The notes: generated by a model not told the origin, from the sequence alone. A DNA stretch of 64,000 nt from Candidatus Nanohaloarchaea archaeon (GCA_042218075.1 JBDGRK010000005.1:4716-68715); one strand, 5' to 3'. Shown: positions 52,868-59,563, counted from the stretch's first letter. Numbers and translations: made by a program.

Positions 52868-53254
52868 CTATTCCAGTTTACTACCAACAAGGCCTTCCTT
52901 CTCCTCTAAAAATTCGGCTTCGGCTCTCATTGCTCTCTCTGTCACATCTGAAGTTTGCTCATACTCTGATCCTCCATCAGTTTCCAACTGTGGCTTGTAG
53001 AAATCCTCTCCATCTCTGCGAACAGTACGAAGCTCGACATCTTCACCATGGTGTTCCCGTGCCTTTTCTTCACTCCGGTACAATCTAACTCCCGGAACTC
53101 CTCCATCAGGTATCAATCCCTCTTCCATTCTTCCATCTCTCTTGGCAACTTTATGTCTCCTTGGAAATGCGCCTCTACACATATCTCGGGAATCAGTATA
53201 ATTATCTCTAAATTGATTGGCCTGAATCTCCTCAGTAGGCATCGGCATCTCCAT
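52868..53254 (-). CDS. Acidic hypothetical protein with DFxKP..TDGG motif (cassette A)
   Basis: 128-aa ORF, GAGGT SD; motif shared with 58822..59196. Confidence 0.7.
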   Translation of the reverse strand: MEMPMPTEEIQANQFRDNYTDSRDMCRGAFPRRHKVAKRDGRMEEGLIPDGGVPGVRLYRSEEKAREHHGEDVELRTVRRDGEDFYKPQLETDGGSEYEQTSDVTERAMRAEAEFLEEKEGLVGSKLE

Positions 53255-53256
53255 CT

Positions 53257-53328
53257 CTAACCTCTGTAGAGTTTTCCCCTGGATTTTGAAATTTTGCTGA
53301 ATGCTGTGTTATGGTAGTTTTTTTTCAT
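53257..53328 (-). CDS. 23-aa leader micro-ORF (MKKNYHNTAFSKISKSRGKLYRG)
   Basis: AGGTG SD 7 nt upstream; stop lies 2 nt before the next ATG. Confidence 0.5.
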   Translation of the reverse strand: MKKNYHNTAFSKISKSRGKLYRG

Positions 53329-53361
53329 GTTGAAACACCTTTGACGAATGAAGATGATCTA

Positions 53362-53473
53362 ATGCGGCACGAGCACCGCAATCGAGAAACTCTGCCAGCC
53401 CACGGAAAGGTCATACCTTTCGGTATAGTCGGAAACCTTTTCCGTCAATAATTCAGCTGGCATGAACTCTCAC
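53362..53473 (-). ncRNA. Structured leader RNA with GAAA tetraloop
   Basis: Nested stems TGCCAGC/GCTGGCA, ACGGAAAAGGT/ACCTTTCCGT and ATACC-GAAA-GGTAT, plus hairpin TGCGG/CCGCA; begins about 24 nt after TTTATAAA (53497-53504). Confidence 0.65.
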
Positions 53474-53554
53474 AACCGAAAGTATAGAATCAATGATTTA
53501 TAAACATTCTCTACCTCACGACTCTAAAAGTCTTAGGTTTCATCTTAACCTAGT

Positions 53555-57202: not shown

Positions 57203-57207
57203 ATACT

Positions 57208-58707
57208 TTAGATTTTTAGTTTTCTATTGAGCTTTTCAATCTGTTTCTGGCTGTAACTCTGGAACTTTGGTTCATATCTATAAAATGTCTTAAAGAACCG
57301 GATTACCGTCCAATTTCTCAAATAATATTTATACTTATCTCTAATCACAGTTGTGTCAAATAGTTTCTCCAATTTTGAGGCAGTATCACTATTTTTATTC
57401 TGGATTCTTAGCTCATCTTTGCTAGATATCAAGTTAGATGCTATATTATCTATATTTTGGGATACCTTGACAGGCAATTTTACACCTGAATTAGAATTTC
57501 CTCTCAATCCTACTTTGAACTCCACTTCTTCTTTATTCAATTTCTCCAAAAAAGTTTCTCTAGATTCAAATATTGAATCTAACTTCTCTACAGAAGCAAA
57601 ATCGATTTCATTCTCCCAAGCATAAACCTGATTTTTTGATATACCTAATTCAGATCCTAATTCCTTCTGGTATAGATTATTCCTTTCTCTATAATCTCTA
57701 ATCTCATCACCCAATCCTAGGACCCTTAAATCGCTGATTTTTCCAAGATCAAAGTATGGTAAGTAAAAATTATGATTTCTTCTTCCCCTATAACACAGAG
57801 TCCTGGATCCATTTTTCAGCTTTGAAAAAATATGCTTTTTCTTCCTAGGATGTGCAGATCCAATCTTTTCGCAAAAGTATTCGAAATAATTACCTGAAAT
57901 CCTAATCCTGCCAACACCGTTCCTTTCTCTTCTATTTTTAGTCTCAATTCCCATATACTGAAGATCAGAAACACATTGATCGATAAAATGATCAGTTGCG
58001 GATGTTATTGTTACACGGTTACTTTGAGAAGAAACCGCACCATCTGCATCAAATAAACCCCTCCAATAAGCACCCAGCAATTCTTCATCTTCACTAAAAA
58101 GACTTGGCCGCCTTAATTTTCCTTTTTTATAAGATTCTGGCAACTTGAAAAAATATCTGAGGAACCTACAGAACCATTTATTTGAAACAGTCAGTTGAAT
58201 TTTATTTCCTCTATCTAGAATAGTTATAGATTTTTGAGGTATACCAAATAGTCTTTGAATCTTCATTGACATATCCTCGATAAAATCTCTGGAATGTGAG
58301 ATTTCCGAATCATTCTTTCCTCCGTCCACTAAAGTCCATCTAGATGAGTCAGAGAATCCGCCATCACCAGCAGCCAGACCAGCGAAATAAGCATATTCAT
58401 CTGATCTTAATTCAGAAATAAATCTAGGAGGATCAAATCTTGATTTATCTCCATATCCTGTGATGTAATCTATAGCTTCAGCTAGTTCTTTTGAACTATA
58501 TCTTGTTAAAAAGATTTCCAAAGGCCATAAGTTTCGCTCTTCGCAATTCCTAATTAAATAACCTTCATAATTTTCCAGATCAGTAGAATCAAAATTAAAT
58601 CTAGAGTTAAGCTTAGCGTATGGCTTCTCTCTAAAAGTTTTATCCAAATCTCTAGAGACCGATTCAACTATTTTAAGCTCTCCAGACTCGTAAAATAGCT
58701 CTTCCAT
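57208..58707 (-). CDS. Free-standing LAGLIDADG endonuclease with XRE-type HTH
   Basis: YFAGLAAGDGG, YWRGLFDADG, IRDYRERNNLYQKELGSELGISKNQVYAWEN; strongly AT-rich; basic protein. Confidence 0.88.
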   Translation of the reverse strand: MEELFYESGELKIVESVSRDLDKTFREKPYAKLNSRFNFDSTDLENYEGYLIRNCEERNLWPLEIFLTRYSSKELAEAIDYITGYGDKSRFDPPRFISELRSDEYAYFAGLAAGDGGFSDSSRWTLVDGGKNDSEISHSRDFIEDMSMKIQRLFGIPQKSITILDRGNKIQLTVSNKWFCRFLRYFFKLPESYKKGKLRRPSLFSEDEELLGAYWRGLFDADGAVSSQSNRVTITSATDHFIDQCVSDLQYMGIETKNRRERNGVGRIRISGNYFEYFCEKIGSAHPRKKKHIFSKLKNGSRTLCYRGRRNHNFYLPYFDLGKISDLRVLGLGDEIRDYRERNNLYQKELGSELGISKNQVYAWENEIDFASVEKLDSIFESRETFLEKLNKEEVEFKVGLRGNSNSGVKLPVKVSQNIDNIASNLISSKDELRIQNKNSDTASKLEKLFDTTVIRDKYKYYLRNWTVIRFFKTFYRYEPKFQSYSQKQIEKLNRKLKI

Positions 58708-58821
58708 AATATTTCTAACTTTGAAATATTAAAATACCTGATCCAAAATCTTCCGCTATTCCGGGAGAAAAGAAATAAGGGAAAAATAAAAGAGAGCTAT
58801 CATATTGTACAAGAAGGTTAA

Positions 58822-59196
58822 TCACAGCGAGGATTCAGAGAATTCACCACCTCTCTCAAACATTCTGGCCTGGCTTTCACCCCCATCGACAGAAGAGTTG
58901 TGCCGAACATCCCTCATTTTTTCTTCGTATTCCTGTTCTTGCTCTTCCACTTCTCCTCCATCGGTTGCAACAGGTTTCAGGAAGTCTTTAGTCTGTCTCC
59001 AGTTGGGTAGAGATCTCATTCTCTGCATCATTAATTCATTTCCAACCTCAGCAGACATAACTCCCTCATAGTCGCTATCTGTTTCAGGAGTTACTCTGTA
59101 CTTGCTTCTTCTAGTCTCCTCTACATGGTAACCGTTTCTATCAAACTCTCTCGCCTCTTCTTCAGTGAGATCAAGGTAAACAGAGTTTCCAGCCAT
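58822..59196 (-). CDS. Acidic hypothetical protein with DFxKP..TDGG motif (cassette B)
   Basis: 124 aa from ATG 59196 with GGAG SD; TGATG overlap with the upstream micro-ORF. Confidence 0.7.
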   Translation of the reverse strand: MAGNSVYLDLTEEEAREFDRNGYHVEETRRSKYRVTPETDSDYEGVMSAEVGNELMMQRMRSLPNWRQTKDFLKPVATDGGEVEEQEQEYEEKMRDVRHNSSVDGGESQARMFERGGEFSESSL

Positions 59197-59279
59197 CAAG
59201 ATCTCCCCCAAGAGCTGTTTCTATTCTCGTACTGGTTTTTGACGTTTGCGTCGTGGTTGTGGTGTGTTGTGTTTGTCAT
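59196..59279 (-). CDS. 27-aa leader micro-ORF (MTNTTHHNHDANVKNQYENRNSSWGRS)
   Basis: AGGTGA SD 5 nt upstream; TGATG coupling to the next gene. Confidence 0.55.
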   Translation of the reverse strand: MTNTTHHNHDANVKNQYENRNSSWGRS

Positions 59280-59563
59280 GGTTGTCACCTACAGCAAGAA
59301 GCTGTTCCCGACCTGCCAGGCCAAGAAACAGCGAGAAAACTCTACACAATAAGCAGCAGCACAATCAGGATAATCGAAACTGCACTGAATTCAGATACTT
59401 TCGAAAACAAACCAGAATCCATATTTGAGAAACTAACCGAGCAGAACATGTCCACCCTGGATAAAGCATCCACCCTGCACAAAATATTCACCCGTGGGGG
59501 CCGTGGACAGTGCTTTATGGAACATAGTCGTTAAGTCTCCTCTATTCTTTATAAAACTCAGGT

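Follow-up and report, generated by a model that had tools for sequence, protein, structure and literature searches.

A tiny first reading frame with an amino-acid-matched codon suggests a ribosome-based amino-acid sensor in nanohaloarchaeal leaders

The window analysed here is the whole 64,000-nucleotide (nt) stretch G000:C36:4716-68715 of the Candidatus Nanohaloarchaea assembly G000, along which all positions are counted. Spread over 40 contigs, the assembly totals 1.10 Mb at 92% completeness, with a G+C content (GC) of 0.47, and the sequencing runs containing its DNA are salt-lake metagenomes. Its genome size, its acidic proteins and enzymes of archaeal type likewise point to Nanohaloarchaeota. 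On the minus strand of the window, genes for an aspartate aminotransferase and a prephenate dehydrogenase are followed by a small cassette, unit B, and by a gene with LAGLIDADG and helix-turn-helix (HTH) domains. Then come topA on the plus strand and, both on the minus strand, a second cassette, unit A, and ilvE; topA and the LAGLIDADG gene are bracketed by the two units. Each unit consists of a leader, a micro open reading frame (micro-ORF) and a main ORF for an acidic protein with DGG motifs. In leaders of this kind, a tiny first frame with an amino-acid-matched codon suggests a previously undescribed, ribosome-based amino-acid sensor. Direct reading located octamer, motif, spacings, Shine-Dalgarno (SD) sequences, micro-ORFs and main ORFs where the initial annotation of this DNA had put them, and a pyrimidine-rich stretch is indeed present downstream of both main ORFs. 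The features of the two units are as follows.

59548-59555, minus strand: unit B, TATA-like octamer, immediately 3' of the prephenate dehydrogenase stop (direct reading)
59433-59525, minus strand: unit B, first-frame leader ORF (frame X), 30 codons, with two G-G-x-(F/V)-sensor boxes (box register checked)
59342-59473, minus strand: unit B, +1 frame ORF (frame Y), stop at 59342-59344
59332-59343, minus strand: unit B, AGAGTTT(T)CTCG motif, beginning at the frame-Y stop codon
59286-59290, minus strand: unit B, SD of the micro-ORF (sequence reading)
59196-59279, minus strand: unit B, micro-ORF, 27 codons, its stop overlapping the main ORF start by 1 nt
58822-59196, minus strand: unit B, main ORF, 124 amino acids (aa), acidic, two DGG motifs, codon score 0.348, isoelectric point (pI) 4.56
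53497-53504, no strand assigned: unit A, palindromic TATA-like octamer (direct reading)
53359-53463, minus strand: unit A, single-frame leader ORF, 34 codons, lacking a K-G-G-R-F box (ORF list)
53336-53356, minus strand: unit A, anti-SD (CTTC, 53351-53356) pairing with the SD (53336-53341; minimum-energy folds)
53257-53328, minus strand: unit A, micro-ORF, 23 codons, ending 2 nt ahead of the main ORF start
52868-53254, minus strand: unit A, main ORF, 128 aa, acidic, two DGG motifs, codon score 0.223, pI 4.89

In unit B, the ATG of frame X is found 23 nt downstream of the octamer, and the two boxes end in what are termed sensor codons here, one for Ile (59460-59462) and one for Leu (59442-59444). 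The final 12 residues of frame Y include 4 Leu, 4 Ile and 3 Val, which places it among only four of 31,576 frames of G000 with at least 10 such residues in this position. The AGAGTTT(T)CTCG motif ends 53 nt before the micro-ORF ATG in unit B and 55 nt before it in unit A, where the motif (53383-53393) sits within the leader ORF; in both units the SD is located 6-7 nt ahead of this ATG. The tail of the unit A leader ORF contains only five Ile, Leu or Val residues, and the palindromic octamer could also serve the divergently oriented topA. Both units are present without a single difference on contigs from an independent study; the DNA is therefore real, and the same identity leaves no polymorphism for a test of nonsynonymous to synonymous substitution rates (dN/dS).

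Some marks by which the units had been annotated proved not to be specific. The leaders had been described as long and base-paired, and they fold no better than shuffled sequences (z -0.79 and +0.71). The AGAGTTT(T)CTCG motif, regarded as a marker, occurs seven times in the genome, with the other five copies inside long ORFs, and a scan for the motif followed after 35-65 nt by an SD and ATGA yielded 13 matches outside G000 versus 8 in the control, all 13 being ordinary genes or lying within ORFs. In unit B, the motif is the counterpart of a pyrimidine-rich anti-SD region in related units, which are described below.

A search with a leader profile matched, in addition to the cassettes, the spacers before two synthetase genes of the window, and the box class of unit B is the one that precedes synthetase genes.

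50244-50337, plus strand: serS leader, frame X M-K-G-G-R-F-S... at 50244-50285, Ser sensor codon at 50262-50264; +1 frame open to a stop at 50335-50337, across the serS start at 50330
49061-49181, plus strand: tyrS leader, frame X M-K-G-G-R-F-Y..., Tyr sensor codon at 49079-49081; +1 frame without a stop until 5 nt beyond the tyrS start at 49174

Eight boxes of G000 align without gaps over their core, which consists of an ATG, codons for Lys-Gly-Gly-Arg-Phe and one variable codon. The latter specifies Ser before serS, Tyr before tyrS, Thr before thrS, Val before valS, Phe before pheS-alpha, Ile before an ammonia-lyase gene and Leu in a further cassette, unit C. For all five synthetase genes among these, each identified above curated cut-offs, the sensor codon is that of the enzyme's own amino acid. 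A box model built on sequence only matched 50 of the 70 genomes of the phylum (42/49, 3/10 and 4/8 in three families and 0/2 in the remaining two). From about 160 box matches at E <= 0.01, sensor codons were read at the best locus of 27 genomes, in addition to the eight boxes of G000. A synthetase-like gene lies downstream at 22 of these 27 loci and the codon fits in every case; the other five comprise one ammonia-lyase gene, one ORF of 163 aa and three loci without a long ORF within 520 nt. Nine synthetases from the 22 were submitted to NCBIfam and all were confirmed above cut-off (Ser, Tyr, Thr and Gly), including two glyS genes behind Gly codons. Thus, sensor and enzyme agree in 14 of 14 synthetases confirmed by curated models, five in G000 and nine elsewhere, and in 26 of 26 synthetase leaders if enzymes are assigned by N-terminal likeness. 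Synonymous sensor variants are found (TCC/TCT, TAC/TAT, ACC/ACA). By our own arithmetic, with six amino-acid classes and uniform codons, a match of this kind would be obtained by chance with a probability of about 3e-8.

The boxes have further properties in common. Each of the 26 leaders has an ATG in frame with the box; in 24 it precedes the Gly-Gly codons by two codons, and in 23 it follows the end of a TATA-like A/T run at a distance of 18-33 nt, which places the mini-ORF at or near the 5' end of the mRNA. The Gly-Gly codons form an invariant G-rich stretch, resembling the SDs of these loci, 4-5 nt before the UUU or GUU codon that precedes the sensor.

The second frame was examined in 26 synthetase leaders, 21 from the best loci and five from G000; the ammonia-lyase gene, the 163-aa ORF, the three loci without an ORF in reach and one locus with a miscalled start were excluded. 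Read from the box, the +1 frame meets no stop until it is within 12 nt of the synthetase start in all 26 leaders; the same holds for the +2 frame in one leader and for frame X in none. As the start, whichever ATG or GTG of the long ORF lay closest to the +1 stop was used, a rule that somewhat favours the +1 frame. Despite this rule, synthetase N-termini are concordant across genomes. Frame X itself stops 7-16 codons past the box in all leaders. A consensus RNA fold calculated for ten serS leaders (-1.48 kcal/mol, three pairs) revealed no shared structure. One locus deviates from the general arrangement: on contig C10 of G000 (L141:6632-7378, minus strand), a box with a Trp sensor (TGG) follows a lead-in of 12 codons, and its +1 frame encounters no stop at a start codon and continues for 244 aa without a match in NCBIfam. 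This product may be a true trans-frame fusion.

The initial annotation had proposed a repeated system, and further loci were found. In the congener G068, a unit is present at the position of unit A, and in G067 one follows a RadB-like gene; G000 itself harbors units C and D, 10 kb past the end of the window (pattern searches), with D directly upstream of the threonine ammonia-lyase gene. The cassette beside the RadB-like gene occupies the same chromosomal place in three genera. With units A and B left out, a profile of 25 related leaders detected unit B genome-wide at E 1.8e-14; a frame-Y profile, for which B was itself in the training set, matched it at E 4.8e-12. In single-sequence nhmmer searches, the G067 unit matched C (E 1.9e-27) and B (2e-6), the G068 unit matched C (6e-9), B and C recovered each other at about 3e-4, and A recovered only itself. 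Whole-unit MAFFT alignments were uninformative. A covariance model of the 3' module, built from six units, matched 18 of the 70 genomes, all of one family (17 of its 49 other members, 10 genera).

From these comparisons a common layout emerges. At the 5' end, a TATA box is followed by a near-leaderless mini-ORF, frame X, reading ...K-G-G-R-F-X; next is a +1 frame ORF with a terminal Ile/Leu/Val run and a covarying hairpin over its stop; an anti-SD:SD helix and a micro-ORF of 24-29 codons, coupled to a fast-evolving acidic DGG protein, complete the unit. In 20 sequences, 94.1% of the cells of the two helices are paired, compared with 84.3% in shuffles and 36-63% in slid controls, and 11 of 17 pairs show double changes; none of 500 shuffles reached these values of pairing and covariation, which are favoured by the fitting of the alignment to the covariance model. 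The loop of helix 1 contains the stop codon of the upstream ORF. In helix 2, a pyrimidine-rich anti-SD pairs with the SD of the micro-ORF, with three of six pairs doubly changed; the CTTC noted earlier in the leader, together with the motif region, is this anti-SD. If a ribosome is placed at the end of the upstream ORF, the predicted exposure of the SD increases in units A, g68 and G034D, in unit A from a probability of being unpaired of 0.29 to 0.63. The coupling of micro-ORF and DGG protein, another feature annotated before, is conserved as well. Among 20 related units, 18 have a micro-ORF of 24-29 codons, one a micro-ORF of 36 codons and one a micro-ORF masked by N; in 17 of the 20 a main ORF starts within -4 to +6 nt of the micro-ORF stop, and 12 of these 17 proteins contain DGG.

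All 20 upstream ORFs have a Leu-rich terminal run, and in 25 of 28 cassette units a box is present whose +1 frame is the frame of the run. The sensor codon of a cassette predicts the composition of this run. Units with only a Leu box have Leu tails (13 units), those with Ile and Leu boxes mixed tails (six, including B), and the single unit with a Val box has a Val-rich tail, while four ilvA leaders with an Ile box end in 6-8 Ile and no Leu. At threonine ammonia-lyase loci, the upstream ORF ended in 6-8 Ile residues in five of five cases from three genera, with variation between ATT and ATC. Among the 31,576 stop-to-stop frames of G000, the ilvA leader ORF, with seven Ile in its final 12 residues, ranks first, and unit C ranks first for Leu in this position. 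The ilvA-type leader has only a hairpin of five pairs; the enzyme encoded behind it, a threonine ammonia-lyase without regulatory domain, scored 361.9 bits versus a cut-off of 378.75.

It appears likely that these leaders are amino-acid-specific and act through translation. For units A and B, we consider it rather probable that they are paralogous copies of a conserved cis-regulatory leader in which low tRNA charging would raise the synthesis of the downstream product by means of a +1 frameshift; for the frameshift step as such, the sequences leave about an even chance. When the cognate charged tRNA is scarce, the ribosome would wait at the sensor codon and might slip by +1 on the UUU or GUU codon preceding it, an event that the SD-like G-rich stretch just upstream would aid as in prfB. 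The slipped ribosome would read frame Y down to the start of the next gene, where it could re-initiate or, held at the run, keep the SD helix open. By this route, low charging would result in more synthesis of the downstream product. A wider proposal is put forward tentatively, its chance being judged slightly below even: a phylum-wide gauge of tRNA charging with a +1 shift at hungry codons, that is, a translation-based analogue of the T-box and the first amino-acid-specific leader system in Archaea, of which A and B would be branched-chain versions gating the DGG family.

Several known systems are similar in part. T-boxes and leader-peptide attenuators are bacterial. T-box riboswitches (RF00230) of Gram-positive bacteria likewise use one cognate codon before synthetase and amino-acid genes and apply one design to many genes. 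The leaders described here, in contrast, possess neither Stem I nor antiterminator nor a conserved fold, they have no match in Rfam, their codon lies within a mini-ORF that opens the mRNA and would be translated, and the organisms are archaeal. Programmed +1 frameshifting is known from the autoregulation of prfB (release factor 2), from hungry codons in Ty1 and from antizyme. In common with these, the leaders have a short zero-frame ORF; a G-rich stretch a few nt ahead of a putatively slippery xUU codon may serve as an SD-like stimulator, and the sensor codon, if decoded slowly in the A site, would report the level of the factor that decodes it. As in the prfB type, the zero-frame ORF ends soon after the presumed shift site. 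Unlike in prfB, it is a sense codon that is sensed, with the substrate tRNA of the gene's own product as its reader, and in all 26 leaders the +1 frame ends at the start codon of the protein and does not encode it, which implies coupling; only the Trp-box locus may give a true trans-frame fusion. Leader-peptide attenuators such as ilvL, leuL, pheL/pheM, thrL and hisL also have an upstream ORF rich in codons for the regulated amino acid. Here, however, no terminator/antiterminator pair was found in the leaders, and a single sensor codon at a fixed position is combined with a second frame and an anti-SD:SD helix. To our knowledge, ribosome-mediated attenuation has not been established in archaea. 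As in ermC and cat, the leader ORF of the cassettes ends beside a helix that might hide the SD of the next cistron, but the trigger would be tRNA charging instead of a drug, and in most units the predicted occlusion is not above that in shuffled sequences.

As far as we know, little has been learned about how archaea adjust their aminoacyl-tRNA synthetases to the amino acids available. A box of six codons with a seventh that tracks the amino acid of the enzyme (Ser, Tyr, Thr, Val, Phe and Gly synthetases, and Ile before threonine ammonia-lyase) would be a simple rule. If true, it would represent a portable sensor design, whose specificity is changed by the swap of one codon, and might be an example from nature of regulation through a +1 frameshift at a sense codon. 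It would also offer a handle on amino-acid sensing by host-dependent archaea with small genomes, and the long "leaders" and orphan micro-ORFs of these genomes would have to be annotated as functional parts of operons. No archaeal leader-peptide or synthetase-frameshift system was found in literature listings and abstracts, and passages of PMC13158618 and PMC8211752 describe none.

A number of observations weigh against the frameshift proposal. Frameshifting and coupling are both deduced from the sequences, and frame Y has a GTG of its own within the box, so that independent initiation is possible. Where the sensor is Ile, Thr or Val, only imperfect pairing would await the tRNA after the slip. 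Related leaders are inherited, and the counts given above are therefore not independent events. The third positions of the Gly codons in the box are invariant, which indicates a constraint at the RNA or DNA level besides that on the peptide. In two genomes of the same genus, G066 and G068 (L017, L018), the box is missing before serS and the downstream part of the spacer is retained; the leader has thus been gained or lost within a genus. The complete congener G066 yielded no box match at all, under stricter filters; with boxes missing in congeners, the system is dispensable. Predicted SD occlusion exceeds that of shuffled controls in only 2 of 16 units and is no stronger in the other 14. Since ilvC, ilvD and an acetolactate synthase gene were not found in G000, simple feedback control would make little sense there for an Ile-sensing leader ahead of the threonine ammonia-lyase gene. 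Unit A has no K-G-G-R-F box in profile and box searches, and a profile of 27 leaders built without it detected it only at E 0.08, as the fifth-best match in the genome. Finally, main ORF A (E 0.099) and main ORF B (E 0.16), searched in a set of 23, were not recognised by a profile of the DGG family.

Other readings of the same arrangement have to be considered. The pause might act without any frameshift, frame Y being started at its own GTG and the stalled ribosome making this GTG or the SD helix more or less accessible, by analogy with ermC/cat and with classical leader peptides. Conservation of the GTG at the head of frame Y in most units would fit, as would the covariation seen in two helices, one around the frame-Y stop and one between anti-SD and SD, and the increased SD exposure in three units with a ribosome at the ORF end. 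The GTG, however, has no SD of its own, is only 7 nt from the first ATG of the mRNA and is replaced by CTG in G067; moreover, a paused ribosome would cover it and starvation would lower expression, the wrong sign for a synthetase gene. Stalling alone is rated unlikely. It is very improbable that tRNA is bound directly by the RNA, as in T-boxes, with the triplet pairing to the anticodon, the UGG stretch pairing to the tRNA 3' end and the leader remaining untranslated. The specifier logic would be identical, the invariant third positions of the Gly-Gly codons would be explained, and the box presumably resembles the conserved T-box sequence. Yet Rfam detected nothing at the gathering threshold in the window with the serS and tyrS leaders, serS leaders are devoid of a consensus structure, and the triplet is only 6 nt from the UGG stretch, unlike in T-box geometry. 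In addition, the in-frame ATG of all 26 leaders, at its nearly constant distance from Gly-Gly, speaks for translation, and a pure RNA sensor would not need the open +1 frame.

An ordinary operon of three genes, for a hydrophobic tail-anchored peptide, a micro-protein and an acidic protein, with the box as operator for a DNA-binding regulator, would account for other aspects. The hydrophobic C-terminal runs of the upstream ORFs comprise 11-17 residues and could be membrane anchors, the main ORFs look coding, and the box is situated just after the TATA box, where archaeal repressors bind. An operator, though, leaves unexplained why the triplet, synonymous variants included, follows the amino acid of whichever enzyme is encoded downstream, and why the +1 frame is open, and as membrane anchors the runs are short for a span, have no flanking charges and switch among Ile, Leu and Val with the sensor codon; this possibility is considered quite improbable. 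Extremely improbable, in our view, are the two explanations given by the initial annotation, the micro-ORF itself as an attenuating upstream ORF or the units as halovirus-like relics. Length and stop-start overlap with the main ORF are conserved features of the micro-ORF, but no amino-acid run is found in it, and the SD of the main ORF determines which residues it ends in. The underlying idea of a repeated, undescribed, RNA-controlled small-ORF system of the attenuation type is retained; the sensor has moved from the micro-ORF to the overlapping frames in what was taken for a leader. A relic could be suspected from the location of unit B beside the LAGLIDADG/HTH gene, which is low in GC, is missing from congener G066 and is the only mobile-looking gene near the units. 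Proteins A, B and C, however, matched no PHROG family at E <= 0.01, and the chromosomal locations of units are stable from genus to genus; there is no support for a viral origin, viral contig collections not having been scanned.

With the amino-acid-specific leader as the preferred interpretation, the two units of the window differ in standing. By its profile matches, unit B is a firm member of the conserved multi-copy leader family, and with its Ile and Leu sensor codons it looks intact; the first 18 nt of its micro-ORF are the same as in the G067 unit. Unit A is assigned to the family by its architecture, its genomic place and the start of its micro-ORF, all common to the unit of G068, which carries the box. 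The micro-ORFs of unit A and of the G068 unit begin with M-x4-H-N-T-A (p 0.006), a pattern found in no other of the 70 genomes and not in the control, and three of the four conserved codons differ synonymously. Unit A is thus probably a weak, degenerate member that has lost its box, a constitutive or decaying copy. No cassette unit was detected upstream of ilvE in eight other genomes, so the adjacency of unit A and ilvE is not conserved. In four of the genomes with ilvE, G006, G016, G017 and G014 (L112, L115, L116 and L117; families f4 and f5), this gene directly follows a long gene whose product has a C-terminus like leucyl-tRNA synthetase, a name judged by eye, and the spacers of 28-42 nt contain no leader.

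The main ORF proteins were compared separately. D-F-x-K-P-x(1-4)-T-D-G-G occurs only twice in the six-frame translation of the G000 genome, in main ORFs A and B. Both are coding-like, with codon scores (0.223 and 0.348) above the 99th percentile of shadow ORFs (0.104, n=780); real gene chunks of 125 codons gave a mean of 0.362 (standard deviation 0.152). The initial annotation had treated the two proteins as kin. Pairwise BLASTP gave E 0.013 and comparison with shuffles z 2.06, and in a search of 13,797 ORFs they ranked ninth and seventh for each other (E 6.6 and 4); on its own, this likeness is not significant. Word-indexed protein searches returned only self-matches for proteins A, B and C, exhaustive HMMER found B alone among 1.84 billion representatives, and neither A nor B had a real match in the 69 other genomes; by these searches, both are strict orphans. 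In Pfam, the best E for A and B was 0.07, and a precomputed label of protein B, PF25951.1, was not confirmed, no such family being contained in the Pfam copy searched. The ESM Atlas had no usable match for B, and its Atlas model of B has a predicted local distance difference test score (pLDDT) of 0.46. Main ORFs of related units are more coherent, 11 grouping as one family by phmmer. Many DGG proteins (G021, G031, G024, G068, G034, G035) share a C-terminal motif like Y-M-G-D-F-P plus one hydrophobic residue, which may serve for docking, and DGG is usually preceded by (V/R)-(T/A/S) in them.

The surroundings of the units vary among congeners. By synteny, neither unit A nor unit B is found beside topA in the complete genome G066. 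The 499-aa LAGLIDADG/HTH gene (57208-58707, minus strand), with a GC of 0.34 versus 0.47 for the genome, and unit B occupy a gap of 2.4 kb that measures 86 nt in G066, and in G068 about 6 kb of different genes separate topA from the dehydrogenase gene; the junction between topA and the dehydrogenase gene is therefore a variable spot. The topA gene (53555-57202, plus strand) encodes 1215 aa, and its counterparts in three congeners encode 681-697 aa. Missing from G066, G067 and G068 is an insert of about 530 aa that starts with Cys, ends with His-Asn before Ser, junctions which we take to follow the intein rule, and contains a LAGLIDADG-like sequence; it is a probable intein. At 6086-6171 on the minus strand, a tRNA of 86 nt is found (56.3 bits with Rfam) to which ARAGORN gives a two-letter anticodon call and no name; it may have an intron or an odd anticodon loop.

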